This document shows, in pieces, positions 9,923 to 60,381 of a stretch of 64,000 nt of DNA. Source of the DNA: a virus; UHGV virus genome UHGV-0375936; one strand, 5' to 3'. Position 1 is the first letter of the stretch; each line of letters begins with the position of its first letter. A program made the position numbers and the translations under genes. The notes under the pieces are model-generated. The model did not search any database and was not told the DNA's origin. It was given only the letters and a program-made list of their open reading frames with translations.

Positions 9923-10644
9923 AGGGTAACTCCTCTATTGATTGGAAAACTCGTGTTTATCGTATCCCAAATTCTACTAACTTCCGCCAGTTGAATCTGA
10001 CGTGGTGTTTTCTTCGCAAACGCAAGCTGACGTGGGGCCGAGCCCACAACAACAGGCACATCGATTTTCGCGCTATAGAACGAGGCGTCTTTCATAAAGC
10101 CTGCCATTTCTCGTTGTGCTGCTCGAGATTTGCTTTTGATTCGCGTGTGAGCGCCACTTTCACCCCAGTGGTAAGCTAACGCAACTTCAGCCATGGTGGG
10201 CTTGCGTTTGAGTCGTTTGGTTAACCCCTTCTCAAGATGTTTAACATACGCGGTAGCCAGCAAAACAGCATTACGCGGATTATACAAATCGGCGTTCTGA
10301 CTAAGACCTAATTCTTTTCCATAAAGCTTTAGCAGATTACGCTTGGTACTTGGAAGCATTTGTACCAGGCTGTGTGCTCGTGAGCTTTTGTTGTAAGCCT
10401 TGGGATCAAAACGCGATTCACGATAAATCAGCGTAATCATCAGCTTGGGATCAACGCCCTGCTTTCGTGAGATTTCCACAATTAACGGGCTGACTTTTTC
10501 GAACCGATGTTGGATTTGTGCAAACTCTCGCTGATGCTTAGAATGTGGCGTTGACGTTGACGCCTGTGCGTTAAACGCGAAAAGTGTTACCAGTAAAAGA
10601 AAGAAGATACGAAACATTTTGTTTCTCCAGTTGGATTTATACAT
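9919..10644 (-). CDS. lytic transglycosylase (SLT domain) with signal peptide
   Basis: Signal-like MFRIFFLLLVTLFAFNAQAS; SLT catalytic region LIYRESRFDPKAY...SLVQMLPST. Confidence 0.75.
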   Translation of the reverse strand: MYKSNWRNKMFRIFFLLLVTLFAFNAQASTSTPHSKHQREFAQIQHRFEKVSPLIVEISRKQGVDPKLMITLIYRESRFDPKAYNKSSRAHSLVQMLPSTKRNLLKLYGKELGLSQNADLYNPRNAVLLATAYVKHLEKGLTKRLKRKPTMAEVALAYHWGESGAHTRIKSKSRAAQREMAGFMKDASFYSAKIDVPVVVGSAPRQLAFAKKTPRQIQLAEVSRIWDTINTSFPINRGVTL

Positions 10645-17995: not shown

Positions 17996-18388
17996 TTATT
18001 CGGCAGGACGATTTAAGGTAACGCGTCCGATTAATTCAGCGTTGTGAAAGAAGTCCACAGCGGTATAGTTACCAACTGATAGCGGATGGATACTAACTGA
18101 CATTACTTTTGGTTGTTCGCAGGCGATATCCGTCAGGCGTTGGTAGACTTGTGCACGAGTGTCAGCAATGAGTAATCCCGTACACGTTTCACCACGCACT
18201 AAACGATAAACTTGCAGTTTACCGAAACTGCGCATTAACGTAGGCGTCTCATCCGGGTTGATAATCGGTGACTCAGGAGCCGGTTCGTAATAGCGGACAT
18301 CCGAATCACCGAAAGCATAAGTGCCAGTAATTCCGACCGCACAGAAAACAATGATAGTATAAAGTATAGTTCTGATATTCATTTTCAC
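17996..18388 (-). CDS. small secreted protein
   Basis: N-terminal signal-like MKMNIRTILYTIIVFCAVGITGTYA. Confidence 0.55.
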   Translation of the reverse strand: MKMNIRTILYTIIVFCAVGITGTYAFGDSDVRYYEPAPESPIINPDETPTLMRSFGKLQVYRLVRGETCTGLLIADTRAQVYQRLTDIACEQPKVMSVSIHPLSVGNYTAVDFFHNAELIGRVTLNRPAE

Positions 18389-18410: not shown

Positions 18411-18872
18411 TTATTTGTTAGGACGGGTGTGTCCACAGTTCTGGAAGAAAGTTTCAGATAAACGATCGCCTTCTACGGTAAAGTTAGCGGCATCGTTACC
18501 ATTGATACTCACACTGAAAGTTTTGGCATTACCGATAGCATTAACGAAAGCAACCCAAGCGTGTTCTGCCTTGTCGCTACCGTCCACGGTAGGGATGTTA
18601 TAGGTTTTGCCGTTTACGACAATATCCATCATGTTATCTTCAGCGTTAGTTGCACCTACGGGTTCCCCGTAATACCAAACCATGCGACCGTAAAATTTGC
18701 GATTCACAGTTTCTGTGTCACAGTTGATAGACAGTCCGTTTCCGGCGGTGTCTTCGATTTCGTAAACTGCCTGGCCAGGGTTTTGTATTTGTTCCCAACT
18801 ATTGATTGCAGCGTATGCGCTATTGAGGCCGAAAGTTAAAATGGTTATTAAGAATGTGATAAAGGTTTTCAT
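18411..18872 (-). CDS. small secreted protein
   Basis: N-terminal signal-like MKTFITFLITILTFGLNSAYA. Confidence 0.55.
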   Translation of the reverse strand: MKTFITFLITILTFGLNSAYAAINSWEQIQNPGQAVYEIEDTAGNGLSINCDTETVNRKFYGRMVWYYGEPVGATNAEDNMMDIVVNGKTYNIPTVDGSDKAEHAWVAFVNAIGNAKTFSVSINGNDAANFTVEGDRLSETFFQNCGHTRPNK

Positions 18873-19295: not shown

Positions 19296-19373
19296 GTTCT
19301 CCTAAAATGGTTTTCGTTAAGTGAGAGCTTTTGTACTCTCACCTAAGTAATATATATCTGAAATTATTTTTAA
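19296..19373 (-). promoter_or_regulatory. conserved AT-rich box plus 5' hairpin element (copy 1)
   Basis: Near-identical to 55955..56027; minus strand reads TTTCAGATATATATTACTTAGG then hairpin GTGAGAG-TACAAAAGC-CTCTCAC then RBS and ATG. Confidence 0.45.
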
Positions 19374-19383
19374 TATTAACGAA

Positions 19384-19416
19384 CAAAAAAATAAAAGGTG
19401 GGGGTAAACCCCCCAC
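19384..19416 (-). terminator. Rho-independent terminator
   Basis: GGTGGGGG-TAAA-CCCCCACC hairpin with A-run on plus strand. Confidence 0.55.
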
Positions 19417-19421
19417 CGATG

Positions 19422-20000
19422 TTATACATCGAACCGATACTGCCGGGAGTTAATGAGGAATTCGGTATTCAGCTCAATCCATTCGAGTAAATCACCCAAC
19501 GGTAATCGGTTTGGGTTTTCTAACTCAATAGACGCTACCGGATAAGAGTTTACTAATTCCGTAATTGTATCAATACCCTCTTGCGTTCCATCGTCTTCTA
19601 AGGTGATTGTAAACGGCATATCGGTACGATCCGCATTAGGATTGTACAAACTGACTTTTGTTGCTTGGACAAACGCAGACAGGTCGTCACGTATAATGCG
19701 TGTATCAGGCGATAGAACTACCCAGAGATGCTGCCCTGGCTGGAGTTTACGTTTTGCGTAGTTTAAGAAAGGACTTGCCATCAAGTTTTCCAAACCACAA
19801 CAGATGCTACGTAACTGTATTCCGCGCGGATCTCGGTAATCCACATCGAAAATTCCCACAGGTTCATTCGCTGCCTGTTTTATCAGAAAGGCCAATACCG
19901 TGTCCGCTCTTTCTGGTAAGGAAAGCTCTATTCCCTCAAGCTCCCCATCGACGAGATTTTCTAACCAAACGTCTTTTCGCATTTCTATTAATCGGTACAC
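19422..20000 (-). CDS. hypothetical protein
   Basis: 192-aa ORF. Confidence 0.55.
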   Translation of the reverse strand: MYRLIEMRKDVWLENLVDGELEGIELSLPERADTVLAFLIKQAANEPVGIFDVDYRDPRGIQLRSICCGLENLMASPFLNYAKRKLQPGQHLWVVLSPDTRIIRDDLSAFVQATKVSLYNPNADRTDMPFTITLEDDGTQEGIDTITELVNSYPVASIELENPNRLPLGDLLEWIELNTEFLINSRQYRFDV

Positions 20001-20012
20001 GGTTCCACCTCA

Positions 20013-20786
20013 CTAATAATTAAGTTTTACATCGGCAATAAACAGCAATTGTTTACCATGTTGCTGCACTTCTTTCCAACCTAGTTTCATAGCAGCGTCA
20101 ACAACATCTAACATGCTGTAACGGGACATCAAAGATTCTGATTTTGTTCCTGACATTAAGTAAAGTGGCTCATTAGGGCTACGGTCACGTGCGTCAGGAA
20201 GTTCCCGAGAGACTGCTGATCCTTCGGGTACGGTAACAACATGAATCACGGTAAATGGTCTCTTGTGCGTCAGATAGATACGAAACCCAACGTGTTCAGA
20301 TTCATGAAAGACTTTCTTCACAACCACATCTTTTAGTGTCGTCTGAACATCAGCCCCAGGTAATATCGTGGTTTCACGTGAAACGAAACAACGGCTATTT
20401 TCAATCGTGGAGAAATAATTACGTATCGGCAAACTAGCGTTATGATCGCGCAGTTTTTTGCTCAGTAGATCGAAGTTCAGTTCTTTAACTTTCTCTAGCC
20501 ATTCTTTGGCTTGTTGAATGTAATAACTACCGACAGTGCGATAAGTTAATACCTTACCTGTGCTTACTTTCCAAAGTTTAACGCTTAGTGAATTTGGCTT
20601 ATAGCGACGATACTCACCCCGCGTATAGTTGATGCGCTCGTAACGCTCTACATCGTCAACGGGTGCAGATTCGATCGATTGTAATTGCAGCGTACGATCT
20701 AATCTATCGGCGAATAGTAGTGATGTTAGCGGACCTTCGATCAAATACGGTTCGGTTTTAAAGATATCATCTAGATGGATTTTCAT
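20013..20786 (-). CDS. hypothetical protein, tandem paralog family member
   Basis: C-terminus LGWKEVQQHGKQLLFIADV shared with three neighbours; N-terminal LDDIF. Confidence 0.6.
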   Translation of the reverse strand: MKIHLDDIFKTEPYLIEGPLTSLLFADRLDRTLQLQSIESAPVDDVERYERINYTRGEYRRYKPNSLSVKLWKVSTGKVLTYRTVGSYYIQQAKEWLEKVKELNFDLLSKKLRDHNASLPIRNYFSTIENSRCFVSRETTILPGADVQTTLKDVVVKKVFHESEHVGFRIYLTHKRPFTVIHVVTVPEGSAVSRELPDARDRSPNEPLYLMSGTKSESLMSRYSMLDVVDAAMKLGWKEVQQHGKQLLFIADVKLNY

Positions 20787-20853
20787 TTCTATTTCCTTCT
20801 TAACAAAAGCCGCGACTAAAGCGCGGCAGTTAGAGAAAGTCTATTTTTACTTA

Positions 20854-22005
20854 TTAGAGGTCAGCAACAAACAACAGCTGGCAGCCGTACTTTTGTACGT
20901 CCGCCCAACCGTAGTCTTTTCCGATTATAGGTAGATGTAAAATATCCAGCTTCTCGTCTTTCGCTTTTAGTTTCGCCATTAACGCATTGGACTCCTCAGC
21001 ACTGAGGAGTAATGCTGGCTCTTTTTCAGTACGTCCTTCTGCGGTTGGGAAGAAATTGTAATAGCTGCGAGTAGGTAAATCGACAGAAAAACTACGATTG
21101 CCTATTCTGGCGATGAACGCAACTCCTTCACAGTTAGCATCTACACTACACGACCATCCCGCCTCCGTTAAAAGGTCTTTTAACAGACACCACACTTTAA
21201 GTTGGTTCTTAGAAACTGTACGGTAAATAGCAAGATGTTCAGGAAGTAAATGTACGCCCATAACCACGTTTTCAGATTTCTCGTCAAGCAACTCTGGATG
21301 CTGTATCGGGAACAATAATTCACTGATACCCACGTTATCAATTTTGTTAACAAAATCAGTTAATTCATCTTTTAAGGTAGACACTTGATTTTCTCCTTTG
21401 TCTTCAATAATCAGGTGGGGTTCGCCGCTAATTAAAATGTGGTAAACGAGATCGTCAGTAGAACGGTAAGTGAGCTTGATTGCTTTATCACTTAATATTT
21501 CGTAGCGGAAGAAACTTTCGTACCAACTTGAGCCGAAATCGTTTTGTGTAAGCTCCTGCTCAACTTTGATGGTTTTTGCTTCAAAGCCGATTAACTCGCT
21601 TAATAACGCGAGTTCTTGTTTAGTTAAAATAGCTACACCGTGAAAGGGCACTTGTTCAAGCTGAAAACATAACTTAGTGACTTCACCATTTGGGAAGACC
21701 TTAAACATAATCTTCCGGTTGCTACTCTTTTCCCTAACAACGAGTTTACGGTAATTTAGTCCACAATTTGTGTAAGCCGCGAACTGGTAACCTTCAATTT
21801 CTTCATCGGAAGTACAGACATCGACAGGCGCGATAATCTCATCGTATTCACTAAGTACACAGCAGCCCAATTTATAACCAAACAACGTATGTTGTAAAAA
21901 ATAGTCGAGGGTTAAGCTTGGTAGTGGCCAAGCCCGATTATAGCATCTGTCCATCAGTTCTTTTAGGTACTTGGCATGTCTTGGTTTAGAAATAATATTT
22001 CGCAT
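20854..22005 (-). CDS. hypothetical protein, tandem paralog family member
   Basis: C-terminus FFPT...GWADVQKYGCQLLFVADL. Confidence 0.6.
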   Translation of the reverse strand: MRNIISKPRHAKYLKELMDRCYNRAWPLPSLTLDYFLQHTLFGYKLGCCVLSEYDEIIAPVDVCTSDEEIEGYQFAAYTNCGLNYRKLVVREKSSNRKIMFKVFPNGEVTKLCFQLEQVPFHGVAILTKQELALLSELIGFEAKTIKVEQELTQNDFGSSWYESFFRYEILSDKAIKLTYRSTDDLVYHILISGEPHLIIEDKGENQVSTLKDELTDFVNKIDNVGISELLFPIQHPELLDEKSENVVMGVHLLPEHLAIYRTVSKNQLKVWCLLKDLLTEAGWSCSVDANCEGVAFIARIGNRSFSVDLPTRSYYNFFPTAEGRTEKEPALLLSAEESNALMAKLKAKDEKLDILHLPIIGKDYGWADVQKYGCQLLFVADL

Positions 22006-22036
22006 TTTTACTCTCCTTTAGGGGTTTTTTCGTTAC

Positions 22037-22591
22037 TTAAGCAGGGCAAGCTAAGAACAACAACTGCTGACCGATTTTACGTACGGTATACCAACCGTGG
22101 GCTTTAGCGACCGCGATCAACGTTTCCCAGTCATCAACATCACATTGCTCGTTCCGAAGTTTTGTAAAGAGTGCTTCGGCTTCGTCTTGGTTTAATAACT
22201 TACCTGGATTATCAGGGGTGGTGCCAGAAGGGGTTGGAAAGAAATCGTATTGACGCGCTAAGAGAAAATCAACCAGATACTTGGTGTTCTCTTTATAAAC
22301 CAGTGTGGAAGTCTTCCCTTCGTGGAAGAAGCTGCCTGTTTTCCAAACGCTATCTTTCAGTAAGCTCTGAAGGTAATCTGTAAAGCCCGTTCTAAATGGG
22401 ATATGCGTTTTACGCGTGATGTTGCGACGCAGCGGGGTTTCCTCCACAGCTTGTACACTCACCCCTACTATCATCGCACCTGGCTGAATAATGGTATTGG
22501 TCAGTACGGTATAGGGACAGTTAAAGAAATGTTCACCTACACCTTTTTCAAGGGATTGGATAATTTCATTTTTCAGTTTAGTCAGATACAT
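22037..22591 (-). CDS. hypothetical protein, tandem paralog family member
   Basis: C-terminus FFPT...GWYTVRKIGQQLLFLA. Confidence 0.6.
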   Translation of the reverse strand: MYLTKLKNEIIQSLEKGVGEHFFNCPYTVLTNTIIQPGAMIVGVSVQAVEETPLRRNITRKTHIPFRTGFTDYLQSLLKDSVWKTGSFFHEGKTSTLVYKENTKYLVDFLLARQYDFFPTPSGTTPDNPGKLLNQDEAEALFTKLRNEQCDVDDWETLIAVAKAHGWYTVRKIGQQLLFLACPA

Positions 22592-22617
22592 GATATATTC
22601 TCCTTTTAGGTTTTTAC

Positions 22618-23352
22618 TTACGCGGTTTTAATTAGCAGCAGATAGCCCTTCGTAATCTCAGCACAACTCCACCCTTTTACGGCAGCGACACCACGAAGGT
22701 AATTTTCTGTGTGATACTGTAAAAACGGATCGTCTGGATTAATCTCAACTAGGTGAGTGGCTTTAGAAATCGTTTCCGCCTCTGGGATTTGTTTTGTTAA
22801 GCCTGATGCAATCAGTTCAATAACGCGGTATCCCTCTAACCAAGAAACATAGATACGTAAACCGTATAACTTACCGTTATCTTTTAAGGGATAAAGACTG
22901 ATGTCCCGGCCGAGCAACGTTAATTCTACATCAGTGGGAAGGTTTTCTACATGCTTGATTAACCCTACCCCATGTCTAAACAGTGGGAAGTAAGAGTATA
23001 GCGTCAGCATACTGCTTCCTCCAATAAACGTAACATCGGAAACGGTAGGCGTGCTGGCAATGAGGCGAACATGTTCCGCTACGACTTCAAGTTCGGCGTC
23101 ACTGATCAATTTATAGAATAAAATGACGCTGGTTTCGGTATTAAGAACAAAGAAGAACCGGTTGGCGTGACTGCTTATCGTGTATTCGTCAACCATGCTG
23201 TCGATAACGTCACTGTCTGGATAATCTTCGGGTTTAATTGTTTCAGCAGAGACTAACTTAGCAGGTTGGGATTGCCCTATTAGTTCATTAACCACCGTAG
23301 AAGAAAGTTCTAAACTGGTGTTAGTAAAGATATCGTCTAATAATTCTCTCAT
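22618..23352 (-). CDS. hypothetical protein, tandem paralog family member
   Basis: N-terminal LLDDIF and C-terminal KGWSCAEITKGYLLLI related to the three neighbours. Confidence 0.55.
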   Translation of the reverse strand: MRELLDDIFTNTSLELSSTVVNELIGQSQPAKLVSAETIKPEDYPDSDVIDSMVDEYTISSHANRFFFVLNTETSVILFYKLISDAELEVVAEHVRLIASTPTVSDVTFIGGSSMLTLYSYFPLFRHGVGLIKHVENLPTDVELTLLGRDISLYPLKDNGKLYGLRIYVSWLEGYRVIELIASGLTKQIPEAETISKATHLVEINPDDPFLQYHTENYLRGVAAVKGWSCAEITKGYLLLIKTA

Positions 23353-23558
23353 GATTTACTCGCTAATCTCAATAAAGGGGAGTCTATTATTATGGATTGT
23401 AAAAGAGGTATAAGGAAGTCACTACGTTCCTCTGGGAAGAGTATGTCGGTATACTACGTATACCTCCGCTATTTATATCCGTATACATAATGCCCCCTAC
23501 CCCCTACCGGTATCCCGAGTAGCAGAATAAAGGGACATAATGTAATTTTTAGTACCTG

Positions 23559-23639
23559 TTATCGGAAGGTACTAAATGGAGTGTAGTCTTTAAGCCGTTT
23601 GAGCAGCTCATTGAGACTTTCTTTCTTTTTAGTAGACAT
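23559..23639 (-). CDS. candidate 26-aa basic peptide
   Basis: ATG preceded by GGAGAG RBS and by the conserved AT-rich box/hairpin; MSTKKKESLNELLKRLKDYTPFSTFR; below track cutoff. Confidence 0.3.
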   Translation of the reverse strand: MSTKKKESLNELLKRLKDYTPFSTFR

Positions 23640-23691
23640 GATCTGTCTCTCCAAATGGTTTAATCAATCCGTTTCGAATGAAACGTGCTCG

Positions 23692-23747
23692 TAGGGACTG
23701 AACTGGTACTTCAGTCCCTATTCACTTAAGTAAAATATATCTGAAAT
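23692..23747 (-). promoter_or_regulatory. conserved AT-rich box plus hairpin element (variant copy)
   Basis: Minus strand ATTTCAGATATATTTTACTTAAG followed by 10-bp stem hairpin AGGGACTGAA/TTCAGTCCCT. Confidence 0.4.
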
Positions 23748-23772
23748 CAATTCCGATCTAAGGAACGTCCCG

Positions 23773-24738
23773 ATGGAGAAATCCAGTGTTGATTTTTTCT
23801 CAATTGGTATCGTCGCGGAAGACAAACCCCGTGGTACAGATCGGGTAAAAGTGATACCAATTGAAACCAACTTTGCTAACCCTACCGTGGTGCAATCTGT
23901 TTCTTCAGCAACTGAAAAGACGCATGAAACGTCCGGTGCAACAGATAACCTAACCATTAAGACGGGTAACACGATAACCGCAAAGTGGTGGAAGTTTAAC
24001 TCCAACCGAATTAATTCCCCTGACGTTAAACGAGAAGACTACGTTATCTTGTTGCGTTTGGGGAAAACCGATATTTATTTTTGGATTGATCTGAACTTCG
24101 CTAACGTTAAGCGATTAGAAGATGCGGTTTATGCGTGGTCGGCTGACCCTGAAAACCAAATGGCGGATGACTTGTCCAATGCGTATGTGTTGAACGTTTC
24201 GACGATTGACAAACATATCACGCTAAGAACGAGTATGGTGAATGGCGAGAAAGCGGCGTGGTTGTTTCAGTTTGATAATGCAAACGGTACGTGGCAGTGC
24301 GTTGACCATAAAGGAAACAAGTATTACATTAACTCGGTTGAAGATGATCTCGGGTTTGAGAATGCGATGCTTTCAAAAGTGAACATCAACAAAGAAGATG
24401 CGTTCATTTATTCAAAGCGTTCTATTAACCTGGAAACGAAAACGATTAATGAAAAATGTGAAGTCCGCAATACGGAAGCAGCGAATTCCGTTACGTTTAA
24501 AACACAAACCTGGTTAACAGAAGCGGGCAGTTCGACAACGTTTAAAACGCCGAACTTTAAACAAGAAGGGAAGGAAGCGATGTTCACCGGTAATTTGGAA
24601 ATCGCTAAGAACTTCAAATACGGTGGTACGGGTGAAGGCGTGGGTGTCTTTACGGTTAAAGATGCCATTATTTCCGGTATTACCTTTAGCGTTCACATTC
24701 ACCAAGGTAAACATGGCCCGACATCACCTCCACAGTAA
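23773..24738 (+). CDS. hypothetical protein (possibly virion-associated)
   Basis: 321-aa ORF, first gene of the plus-strand structural block. Confidence 0.55.
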   Translation: MEKSSVDFFSIGIVAEDKPRGTDRVKVIPIETNFANPTVVQSVSSATEKTHETSGATDNLTIKTGNTITAKWWKFNSNRINSPDVKREDYVILLRLGKTDIYFWIDLNFANVKRLEDAVYAWSADPENQMADDLSNAYVLNVSTIDKHITLRTSMVNGEKAAWLFQFDNANGTWQCVDHKGNKYYINSVEDDLGFENAMLSKVNINKEDAFIYSKRSINLETKTINEKCEVRNTEAANSVTFKTQTWLTEAGSSTTFKTPNFKQEGKEAMFTGNLEIAKNFKYGGTGEGVGVFTVKDAIISGITFSVHIHQGKHGPTSPPQ

Positions 24739-24945
24739 TTCCCCTTTTTCTTACGTTGTTTTTATATATTGTGACCTGACGTTGGTAAAACTTTTTATCA
24801 ACACTTTTCTTAAACCCATCGTTTAGTTAAGCAGGCCACTTTTTTTCGCGCACTCTACTCCTCCCTACGGGGAGGAGCTATCTTATGCTTCGGTTGTAAC
24901 ACACGTCGGTCTTAGACCACTAACCTTTTGAAATGGAGAGCTGTT

Positions 24946-25155
24946 ATGTCTATTAAAGAGTTCTCTTCTGCTGAGCATATTCCAGAAGAGTTTAAGAAAA
25001 TCGGTAACGTTAGCGCTTTCGGCGATACCGTTGATCATGTAACTGGTAAACTGGCTGCTGAAGCTGAAAAAATTGGCGGCGACGCATTCAAAGTTATCGG
25101 TATTTCCGGCAACAACAAACTGCACGGTAACGCGATTGTCTACAAAAAAGACTAA
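24946..25155 (+). CDS. small DUF1471-like (YdgH/BhsA/McbA-type) domain protein
   Basis: GGAGAG RBS then ATG; KIGNVSAFGDTVDHVTGKLAAEAEKIGGDAFKVIGISG...NAIVYK matches that small-domain pattern; no signal peptide. Confidence 0.45.
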   Translation: MSIKEFSSAEHIPEEFKKIGNVSAFGDTVDHVTGKLAAEAEKIGGDAFKVIGISGNNKLHGNAIVYKKD

Positions 25156-25156
25156 G

Positions 25157-25216
25157 CGAAAAAAAAAACGTGCTACTCCTACCCTCTAAGAGGGTAGGAG
25201 GTTACTTTATTTTTTT
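25157..25216. terminator. bidirectional Rho-independent terminator
   Basis: Hairpin TCCTACCCT-CTAAG-AGGGTAGGA flanked by A-run and T-run between convergent genes. Confidence 0.6.
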
Positions 25217-26469
25217 CGTGCTCTAAAGCGATGCATTTCTAAATACACTTTTTCCCAGGGACCGAATGGACCGACGATTGCTTGCGCGTCGTTAATCTTC
25301 TTCTGATTATACCACCGGGCTTCACGAAAGACGTAGTTTTGACTGTCGAACTCTGTGGTGTTAAATACCCACTCACCCTCCTCCCATGTAGGCCAATAGC
25401 CCACCGTCTTTCCGAAGCGGTTGTTTAAGTACCCTAACGGTTTTTCAGAATCAGGATCGTTAGGGTCCTTGAGATAACAACGTCCCCAAACTGCGTTATG
25501 CGATACACCCACAACCTCTTCTTCTAAATACGGATTATCTACCGTAAAGATAAACGAAGACTCGTGGAGTAAAAGCGCCTTTAATGTTTCGGGGTTGCGA
25601 ATACGTTGGACATTAGTAGGTGTTGATAAATCCCCCACACCGATGGCGTCCCAGTCGTAATAGCGACGGGTTTCCAGAACGGTCCGCGCAAGATCAAAAT
25701 TCGGTAAAGAAATCATGATCGCACGGTCGGAGAAATAACCGCCCGGAGGCAACCAACGTAACAGTCCACCGATGACGAAACCCACCGTTTTTCCCGTAAT
25801 AGATTCGGGTAGCGAAATCATTAACGTGGAGTAATAGTCACGTGTGGTGTCGAGCTTGTTTAGGGTAAGGTTGGCAATGGGGTAAGTTTTAACATTCCCT
25901 AACTGACCAAAAACCATACAGCCGATATCTGGCGTACAGGCCCTTCGTACAATTTTACCGGCCCCGGGTAATCGGACACCTACGGTATCTGTCTGATGCG
26001 CTACCCATTGACCGTTAATGTTGTACAGTACACTATTACGGTATTTGTCCTTCCACTTGTCCTCACAAACGATGACAACGTCATCAGCATCATCTAAGCT
26101 GAAATCTTGACTGTGGTGGTACCCCGGCGGACACAGGTACGTTTCAACGGGCACGTCAGCATTAATCGATTGGTAATGTGCCCAACTGAATTCGAGTTTC
26201 GGCAATCCGGCCTTTAGAGTGGGGATGACGTTTCCGGCTTTTTCATTTAACCAATCTTGTAAAGTGTCTGTTCGGTTTTGTAGTTCGGCAAGATGGTATT
26301 GGCTGACTAACGTATAGTCTTTACCAAGTGCACTTAAACCGATCTCAAAGGTGTGGTAGTCTGAACACAACGTATTTAAGGGTTGCGTGACATCGATGGC
26401 TCCCCAGGTACGGGACTCTCGAGAGAAGCCAAAAGCGCTGTCGGGCCGCACTTGATAAGCAGTAGTCAC
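25207..26469 (-). CDS. hypothetical protein
   Basis: 420-aa ORF, lone minus-strand gene diverging from the fibre genes. Confidence 0.55.
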   Translation of the reverse strand: MTTAYQVRPDSAFGFSRESRTWGAIDVTQPLNTLCSDYHTFEIGLSALGKDYTLVSQYHLAELQNRTDTLQDWLNEKAGNVIPTLKAGLPKLEFSWAHYQSINADVPVETYLCPPGYHHSQDFSLDDADDVVIVCEDKWKDKYRNSVLYNINGQWVAHQTDTVGVRLPGAGKIVRRACTPDIGCMVFGQLGNVKTYPIANLTLNKLDTTRDYYSTLMISLPESITGKTVGFVIGGLLRWLPPGGYFSDRAIMISLPNFDLARTVLETRRYYDWDAIGVGDLSTPTNVQRIRNPETLKALLLHESSFIFTVDNPYLEEEVVGVSHNAVWGRCYLKDPNDPDSEKPLGYLNNRFGKTVGYWPTWEEGEWVFNTTEFDSQNYVFREARWYNQKKINDAQAIVGPFGPWEKVYLEMHRFRARKK

Positions 26470-55954: not shown

Positions 55955-56027
55955 TCTCCTAAAATGGTTCGTTAAGTGAGAGCTTTTGTACTCTCACCTA
56001 GGTAATATATATCTGAAATTATTTTTA
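55955..56027 (-). promoter_or_regulatory. conserved AT-rich box plus 5' hairpin element (copy 2)
   Basis: Near-identical to 19296..19373 over about 75 bp, including RBS, hairpin and TTTCAGATATATATTACCTAGG. Confidence 0.45.
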
Positions 56028-60339: not shown

Positions 60340-60381
60340 GTGAACGTAAATTTCACTCTCTCCTAGGTAATATATATCTGA
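60340..60381 (-). promoter_or_regulatory. conserved AT-rich box plus hairpin element (variant copy)
   Basis: Minus strand TTCTCAGATATATATTACCTAGG followed by hairpin GAGTGAA/TTCACTC. Confidence 0.4.

Follow-up and report, generated by a model that had tools for sequence, protein, structure and literature searches.

Introduction

Poxviruses encode ankyrin-repeat/PRANC (F-box-like) families, in which multiple paralogs combine variable, target-binding N-terminal bodies with a constant C-terminal domain that docks onto a conserved cellular machine; these proteins are non-structural and are linked to host range or immune evasion. In T4-type phages, the internal proteins IPI*, IPII and IPIII share a cleaved N-terminal capsid-targeting signal of about 10 amino acids (aa), are packaged in the head and are encoded at a hyperplastic locus; IPI* has an anti-defence role. 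To our knowledge, no function has been assigned to the majority of early genes in nucleus-forming jumbo phages. Here we analyze four adjacent genes, p257, p383, p184 and p244, which form an array at positions 20013 to 23352 of a 64,000-nucleotide (nt) stretch of the virus genome UHGV-0375936 (the window). According to its neighboring genes, among them those for a 420-aa protein and a baseplate assembly protein, the window belongs to an uncultured giant phage genome of about 225 kb that is of the SPN3US/Asesino type, related to phiKZ and associated with Enterobacteriaceae. Judged by their sequences, the four genes are an expansion of a protein family found only in giant phages, in which a small conserved C-terminal domain (the module) is carried on fast-changing bodies.

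The same module, at the same genomic slot and on variable bodies, occurs in PHROG family members of cultured phages (SPN3US gp175, or SPN3US_0175, Asesino gp195, EarlPhillipIV gp170, and the homologs in phiEaH2 and CR5), which differ from the window lineage in having one detectable copy rather than three or four in tandem. By analogy, the locus may be compared with the poxvirus Ank/PRANC families, which likewise belong to large DNA viruses and consist of non-structural paralogs with a constant C-terminal domain on variable bodies, although there is no relation in sequence or fold and the bodies here are not repeat proteins. A looser analogy might be drawn with the T4 internal proteins, in which a constant element is also joined to polymorphic, fast-evolving bodies at a fixed variable locus; here, by contrast, the constant element is C-terminal and folded, with a length of about 65 aa, and in SPN3US the ortholog is absent from virions. 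Within the same phage group, the chimallivirus DUF7941 paralogs (Goslar gp22 and gp23) similarly combine one module with different extra domains. They are abundant virion proteins proposed to form fibers (bioRxiv 10.64898/2026.04.21.720040). By contrast, the window proteins have no PF25613 match, and their ortholog is non-virion.

Results

A shared C-terminal domain in the array

An earlier note on this DNA had described four adjacent minus-strand open reading frames (ORFs) of 257, 383, 184 and 244 aa, and these lie exactly where it placed them:

20013..20786, minus strand: p257, 257 aa, the canonical family member, with the module at aa 190-257 (nt 20016-20219)
20854..22005, minus strand: p383, 383 aa, an orphan 312-aa body followed by the module at aa 313-383 (nt 20857-21069)
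22037..22591, minus strand: p184, 184 aa, a short body followed by the module at aa 113-184 (nt 22040-22255)
22618..23352, minus strand: p244, 244 aa, which opens the array and has a C-terminus (aa 183-244, nt 22621-22806) that resembles a degenerate module

The module is a C-terminal alpha/beta domain of about 65-70 aa with the consensus [IL]PDxxDR[ST]xN[DE]PxYLMS, followed by a variable two-helix stretch and then by AKxxGWxxVxxxGxQLLFI. An AlphaFold2 model based on a 33-sequence alignment (predicted local distance difference test score, pLDDT, 94.3) predicts the order beta-alpha-alpha-beta-beta. The earlier note had ascribed the module to all four proteins. For p257, p383 and p184, this was borne out both by BLASTP and by an external hidden Markov model (HMM); for p244, the module is only probable, and degenerate. 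In pairwise BLASTP, p257 matched p383 (E = 7e-10) and p184 (E = 3e-6), and p383 matched p184 over 108 aa (E = 5e-14). The module HMM was built solely from homologs outside the window and scored with filters off against all 604 stop-to-stop ORFs of the window. It detected p257 (E = 4.5e-22), p184 (E = 1.5e-18) and p383 (E = 2.5e-18), with every match ending at most 3 residues from the C-terminus, and the next best score among the 604 ORFs was E = 0.5.

The fourth protein, p244, scored E = 5.2 with this HMM, below detection. When its family was compared with the module by hhalign, the last 27 module columns aligned in register (P = 4e-4, probability 34%), and comparison with the p257 family gave 230 collinear columns from end to end (P = 1e-4, probability 58%). 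In the AlphaFold2 model of p244 (pLDDT 82.8), residues 185-242 are predicted to run h-h-E-H-H-E-E, in the same order of elements as in the module model. Thus, p244 is probably a divergent, degenerate paralog of p257.

The two conserved motifs of the module are retained to different extents. Motif 1 ([IL]PDxxDR[ST]xN[DE]P), which precedes the first strand, is complete only in p257 (LPDARDRSPNEP), the protein that carries the full motif (LPDARDRSPNEPLYLMS...GWKEVQQHGKQLLFIAD). It is partial, or partly degenerate, in p383 (FPTAEGRTEKEP; also given as FFPTAEGRTEKEP), degenerate and mostly lost in p184, where the Asp-Arg pair is missing (FPTPSGTTPDNP; also given as FFPTPSGTTPDNP), and cut down to IPE in p244, whose module-like end reads IPEAETISKATHLVEI...GWSCAEITKGYLLLIK. 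Motif 2 (GWxxVxxxGxQLLF[IV]), in the terminal beta-hairpin, is found in p257 (GWKEVQQHGKQLLFIA), p383 (GWADVQKYGCQLLFVA) and p184 (GWYTVRKIGQQLLFLA), and p244 has the relaxed form GWSCAEITKGYLLLIK.

Outside the module, the two resemblances pointed out in the earlier note are also present: FFPT..G.T...P..LL...E.EAL..KL is common to p383 and p184, and an N-terminal LDDIF to p257 and p244. By sequence, the array is thus made up of two sub-pairs, p257/p244 and p383/p184, in the order A-B-B-A. No DNA repeat longer than 23 nt connects the four genes, and their likeness exists at the protein level only, indicating that the duplications are old. Recent gene conversion among the paralogs was excluded on the same ground.

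Among the four, p257 gave the best PHROG match (phrog_26772, E = 5e-11). Its module is 38-45% identical to those of orthologs in other genera, versus 26-34% to those of its own array neighbors. Four features mark p257 as the probable ancestral ortholog of the gene that relatives carry in single copy (SPN3US gp175, Asesino gp195 and EarlPhillipIV gp170): its full motif, a module nearer to those of other genera, its position next to the conserved 192-aa gene described below, and its conservation, the highest in the array. A tblastn search of 50,697 phage records with p383 and p244 gave no match, and no relatives of the bodies of p383, p184 and p244 were detectable in cultured phages. Orthologs of p244 range from 48% to 100% identity, and those of p184 inside the lineage go down to 47%. 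Logan/ENA contigs include roughly 70 alleles of p244 and roughly 30 of p257.

An undescribed family confined to phiKZ-related phages

An exhaustive HMMER search of 1.84 billion representative proteins matched 43 clusters, two of which were repetitive false positives. In the remaining 41, the module lies at or near the C-terminus of proteins of 72-423 aa. A word-indexed homolog search with the module alignment returned three near-identical fragments only. As far as these sequences indicate, the family is restricted to phiKZ-related jumbo phages. It is split over phrog_26772, phrog_33648, phrog_24489 and phrog_18480, all annotated as "unknown function", each of which is matched by 27-34 of 42 family members. 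The domain common to these four PHROGs is new, with no earlier description and no Pfam entry. Literature searches on SPN3US gp175, hypervariable slots and chimallivirus paralog families returned nothing on the module family, and all mentions of "gp175" referred to the phiKZ protease.

The earlier note had allowed for the module being a well-known structural domain, and Pfam, NCBIfam, PADLOC, PDB and fold searches gave no such match. Scans of the four proteins and 42 family members against Pfam, NCBIfam and PADLOC yielded only noise. PDB sequence searches with p383 and with profiles of the module, the p257 family and the p244 family yielded no meaningful match. Known anti-defence families were likewise not matched, either by any of the 42 members in Pfam, which includes Tad2-like and several anti-CRISPR (Acr) families, or in the PDB sequence searches, with no dedicated anti-defence HMM library used. 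Among viral predicted structures (BFVD), Foldseek matched 14 at E<=1e-3; all are of uncharacterised proteins, those that are named belong to jumbo phages of Erwinia and Klebsiella, and several seemingly stem from one phage. The C-terminal beta-alpha-beta-beta part of Rossmann-fold S-adenosylmethionine (SAM) methyltransferases was considered and rejected: only 53-83 residues align, at 5-16% identity, with no SAM-binding motif and no methyltransferase HMM match, a generic supersecondary resemblance. The isoelectric point (pI) of the module has a median of 6.5 (range 4.6 to 9.5).

A variable slot with one, three or four copies

The array fills a variable slot that opens a leftward operon, divergent from the baseplate gene. 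The genes on its two sides are as follows:

19422..20000, minus strand: conserved 192-aa gene (phrog_20879), the downstream edge of the slot, which follows the module gene in the SPN3US-like relatives examined
23773-24738, divergent from the array: baseplate assembly protein gene (phrog_3216, E = 1e-113)

At the same slot, SPN3US, Asesino and EarlPhillipIV each carry a single module gene (412, 223 and 356 aa, respectively), which is the first or second gene of the operon diverging from the baseplate gene. A gene of about 190 aa directly follows the module gene, with a 95-aa gene intervening in EarlPhillipIV, and those of SPN3US and Asesino match the PHROG family of the 192-aa gene. With two different module-bearing queries, tblastn matched 57 and 52 cultured phages, each at a single place in its genome, a count that divergent module copies would escape. 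By contrast, four copies are present in the window, in the related loci L003, L012 and L013 and in the E. coli element p98232, and three in an Enterobacter ludwigii element. The gene p244 is present or absent according to the relative; in the E. ludwigii element it is cleanly absent, and the leader is joined straight to the ribosome-binding site (RBS) of the p184 ortholog. The copy-number comparison suggested in the earlier note therefore revealed real variation: one copy in 57 cultured relatives, versus four in the lineage and three in the E. ludwigii element.

At two loci, the p383 ortholog is called irregularly. In L014 (1656-2510), it is called as 284 aa from the equivalent of Met100 and is preceded by a 310-nt uncalled gap, so that it may be an N-terminal truncation or a frameshift. 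An apparent frameshift in L003 (around 9950-10000) was rejected, since it is really a 10-N scaffold gap in the ENA scaffold and not a pseudogene; this assembly artefact had yielded two false gene calls.

Constrained modules and fast-evolving bodies

Omega, the ratio of nonsynonymous (dN) to synonymous substitution rates, was taken from pooled pairwise Nei-Gojobori estimates among five or six lineage members:

p244: whole gene 0.32, body 0.36, module 0.20
p184: whole gene 0.32, body 0.41, module 0.20
p383: whole gene 0.34, body 0.38, module 0.22
p257: whole gene 0.11, body 0.12, module 0.10
192-aa gene: whole gene 0.10, no body-module split
baseplate gene: whole gene 0.07, no body-module split

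Thus, p244, p184 and p383 are about three times less constrained than p257 (omega about 0.33 versus about 0.1), and their dN is 0.13-0.29 versus 0.03 for p257. No gene and almost no 30-codon window showed omega >1. Compared with L012, p244 and p184 are 47-50% identical, whereas the flanking genes are 76-94% identical, save a 161-aa gene at 63%. The contrast between body and module reverses between pairs of relatives, which points to mosaic recombination. Of the "diversification under selection" put forward in the earlier note, relaxed or faster evolution of the extra copies was found (omega 0.32-0.34 versus 0.07-0.11), but gene-wide positive selection was not.

The description of a constant module on variable bodies holds, and the wider family bears it out more strongly than the window itself does. 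In all 78 pairs of Derbicus-like orthologs, identity between the 60-aa modules is 52-100%, and for the eleven closest it is 72-100%, whereas no body similarity was detectable in 58 of the 78. The module is the most constrained part of these proteins, and the bodies are orphan and fast-evolving.

Promoter-like motif and leader of the operon

According to a review, early operons are preceded, in every jumbo phage that encodes RNA polymerases (RNAPs), by a conserved AT-rich motif of about 10 nt, which, where tested, is the early promoter of the virion RNAP and is centered near -10 of early transcription start sites (PMC7598289). The region upstream of the array has the following features:

23722..23743, minus strand: AT-rich early-promoter-like motif CAGATATATTTTACTTAAGTGA, with the p244 start codon about 370 nt downstream
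23690..23716, minus strand: hairpin AGGGACTGAAGTACCAGTTCAGTCCCT, directly downstream of the promoter-like motif, read from the sequence
23559..23639, minus strand: predicted 26-aa ORF in the array leader
23448..23508, minus strand: conserved non-coding leader element, two G5 runs GGTAGGGGGTAGGGGG followed by the palindrome GGTATAC-GTA-GTATACC

The 22-nt AT-rich motif (CAGATATATATTACYTAGGTGA; also given as CAGATATATWTTAC) occurs four times in the window, versus none expected by chance. All copies (19339-19360, 23722-23743, 55994-56015 and 60359-60380) lie in intergenic sequence of the minus strand, each ahead of a block of small genes read leftward. A hairpin is evident by eye after the copies at 19339, 23722 and 55994; the copy at 60359 was checked less carefully. 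The motif is also found upstream of slot genes in L003, L004, EarlPhillipIV, L015 and L016. The four copies are probably early promoters of the virion RNAP of this phage. A sigma-70 promoter scan detected no more sites than in shuffled sequence.

Over about 75 nt that comprise promoter, hairpin and RBS, the copies at 19339 and 55994 are nearly identical, and the motif is kept in SPN3US, Asesino, EarlPhillipIV and metagenomic relatives. The 26-aa leader ORF is kept in close relatives, with a different short ORF instead in L012, L015 and L016; at its position, SPN3US and Asesino have a 105-aa gene (gp174/gp194). The palindrome of the leader element reads GGTATCC-GTA-GGATACC in SPN3US and GGTGAC-AACG-GTCACC in Asesino, and the stem changes are compensatory in the alignment. 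The element could be a regulatory RNA or DNA structure for the operon; a search of Rfam over 19300-23800, which includes it, gave no match. Two terminator-like hairpins lie downstream:

20809..20827, minus strand: terminator-like hairpin between p383 and p257, GCCGCGCTTTAGTCGCGGC followed by TTTTGTT, from a consensus scan only
19397-19417: strong terminator-like hairpin after the 192-aa gene

Absence of the SPN3US ortholog from virions

Mass spectrometry (MS) of SPN3US virions (PMC5105663 Table S4) lists gp167-171 and gp173 and then gp193, and the ortholog gp175 is absent. SPN3US gp175 is therefore not a detectable virion component.

Stand-alone modules

Some phiKZ-related jumbo phages have stand-alone module proteins of 72-150 aa, at loci from relatives of OBP/AH04-like and, distantly, Noxifer-like phages. 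We examined four of these genes (76-124 aa):

L005, 8001-8231: stand-alone module gene
L009, 858-1112: stand-alone module gene
L010, 3377-3637: stand-alone module gene
L008, 8001-8375: stand-alone module gene

At three of the four loci, the module gene starts 1-16 nt after an ORF of 188-280 aa, and the stand-alone modules may be a split form of the usual body-plus-module architecture; the upstream ORFs showed no similarity to any of the family bodies. The module gene of L008 has no tightly coupled upstream ORF and lies 700 nt downstream of a Tad2-like (PF11195) anti-defence gene.

Genomic context and relatives

The 420-aa protein encoded at 25207-26469 is 80% identical to its homologs in Erwinia phages Asesino and phiEaH2 and 76% identical to SPN3US gp171. 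In a megablast search against the 50,697 phage records, the region had no match, and its DNA has no close counterpart among cultured phages. Contigs of 222-227 kb, some metagenomic and others from assemblies of Shigella, Salmonella and E. coli, encode proteins identical to ones in the window. About 60-65% of the region can be aligned, at about 88% identity, with related elements that have been deposited as circular 222-kb "plasmids":

NZ_CP173450.1, 221,873 bp: E. coli 98232 element (p98232), circular "plasmid"
NZ_CP134650.1, 222,441 bp: Enterobacter ludwigii element, circular "plasmid"

The window lineage is thus found as circular "plasmids" in complete bacterial genomes, and it occurs in many Shigella, Salmonella and E. 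coli isolate assemblies as well; one of its protein clusters has 369 members, and 72 contigs carry another of its proteins. These findings suggest that clinical and environmental Enterobacteriaceae harbor a phiKZ-related jumbo phage in a carrier state or by pseudolysogeny.

Three small genes near the array were also observed:

24928-25155, plus strand: small YdgH/BhsA-like gene (DUF1471, PF07338) between the 420-aa tail-associated gene and the baseplate gene
18411-18872, minus strand: small downstream gene with a signal-peptide-like N-terminus
17996-18388, minus strand: small downstream gene with a signal-peptide-like N-terminus

The first is kept in all relatives. Its family otherwise consists of bacterial periplasmic stress proteins, and the phage copy apparently lacks a signal peptide. 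The other two belong to the same leftward block as the array, and copies of the 18411-18872 gene in relatives match PF27224 (YfjT); by their sequences, the two products look like secreted or periplasmic early proteins.

Discussion

We tentatively propose that the four proteins are early, non-structural effectors, in which the constant domain docks onto a conserved partner and the variable bodies give specificity in host takeover or anti-defence. This proposal is based on the constrained small domain, the swapped and fast-evolving bodies, the retention of the gene at its slot, the confinement of the family to one phage group, the non-virion status of the ortholog and the probable early promoter. 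From the AT-rich motif, which is as described for other jumbo phages (PMC7598289), we infer that the array is expressed early, and it would be transcribed by the virion RNAP. The constant domain would serve in protein-protein docking and link each of the proteins with a single conserved partner, which might be a machine specific to this phage group or a conserved host hub. The variable N-terminal bodies would provide different or shifting target specificity in host takeover or counter-defence, and the extra copies, having lost the Asp-Arg motif, would probably have been sub- or neo-functionalised. Docking is favored over nucleic-acid binding because the median pI of the module is 6.5 and no enzyme or DNA-binding family was matched. 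The role in host takeover or anti-defence that the earlier note had read into the array is consistent with the early-promoter-like motif and with the absence of gp175 from virions, and we keep it as a suggestion.

Several observations weigh against this proposal. The module family matched no protein of known function. The strictly conserved polar residues of its motif (D, R, S/T, N, E/D) might instead form a catalytic or ligand-binding site, and stand-alone modules fit autonomous activity better than a pure tether, a point tempered by the split-gene spacing at three of the four stand-alone loci. As omega is <1 everywhere, it provides no positive evidence for an arms race. The promoter was assigned from its motif alone, and upstream of gp175 SPN3US has only a degenerate version of the motif. 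Because of the terminator-like hairpin between p383 and p257, p257 may be regulated separately.

The main rival explanation, which we regard as unlikely, is that the module itself is the effector: a small autonomous inhibitor or enzyme acting through PDxxDR[ST]xN[DE]P, with the bodies as accessory parts that are regulatory, stabilising or decoys. It would account for the existence of module proteins of only 72-150 aa, one of them near a Tad2-like anti-defence gene with no coupled upstream ORF, and for the polar residues of motif 1, which are invariant or near-invariant, as is typical of an active or ligand-binding site.

It is also improbable, in our estimate, that no arms race is involved and that these are ordinary, weakly constrained ORFan paralogs, with the C-terminal domain as a folding or oligomerisation core and the bodies changing by drift and mosaic recombination. 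Such a scenario agrees with omega values below 1 throughout, with the inconsistent body/module contrast between relatives, which suggests recombination mosaics, with the loss of p244 in the E. ludwigii element and with the commonness of paralog families in jumbo phages. It is harder to reconcile with the fact that all 57 cultured relatives detected, from several genera, have kept the gene in this slot despite near-complete turnover of the body. In addition, the extra copies have a dN about 5-10 times as high as the flanking genes do, and an early-promoter-like element immediately precedes the array.

That the proteins are early regulators which bind nucleic acids, through an R3H/Smr-like RNA- or DNA-binding module, is very unlikely, given the near-neutral pI of the module and R3H and Smr scores at noise level. 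The least credible alternative is host recognition by a virion- or baseplate-associated protein whose module docks onto the baseplate and whose variable body binds host surfaces: although the slot adjoins the baseplate assembly gene and tail genes and the combination of variable and constant parts resembles receptor-binding proteins, this is largely refuted for SPN3US by the absence of gp175 from virions in which its neighbors gp167-171 and gp173 were found, and the array diverges from the structural genes behind an early-type motif, its bodies have no fibre, beta-helix or carbohydrate-binding features, and the stand-alone copies lie within blocks of small non-structural genes.

A bolder version of the effector proposal, which we offer as quite unlikely, is that the domain of about 65 aa is a new adaptor of phiKZ-related (nucleus-forming type) phages, which would plug ever-changing N-terminal, target-binding bodies into one conserved hub, and thus a counterpart, among bacterial viruses, of the Ank/PRANC families that poxviruses use in host range, with the tandem expansion and its polymorphism as a live record of counter-defence. 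Candidate hubs would be the nuclear-shell or import machinery, the early infection vesicle, or a host protease or chaperone.

The array thus represents an undescribed domain family with lineage-specific tandem expansion and presence/absence polymorphism, for which the interpretation in the earlier note is partly supported and its suggested role in host takeover or anti-defence appears plausible. Four "unknown" PHROGs and many metagenomic orphans are now united under one confidently folding domain. It can be assigned to a conserved slot in the genome, and it stays under constraint as the remainder of the protein changes. The isolated module and the natural one-, three- and four-copy variants offer experimental handles on its partner and on effects on host range or defence. 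If the adaptor idea is wrong, the locus would still be an ordinary expansion of an ORFan family; if it is true, it would reveal a modular host-takeover strategy in a phage group that is under development for therapy.

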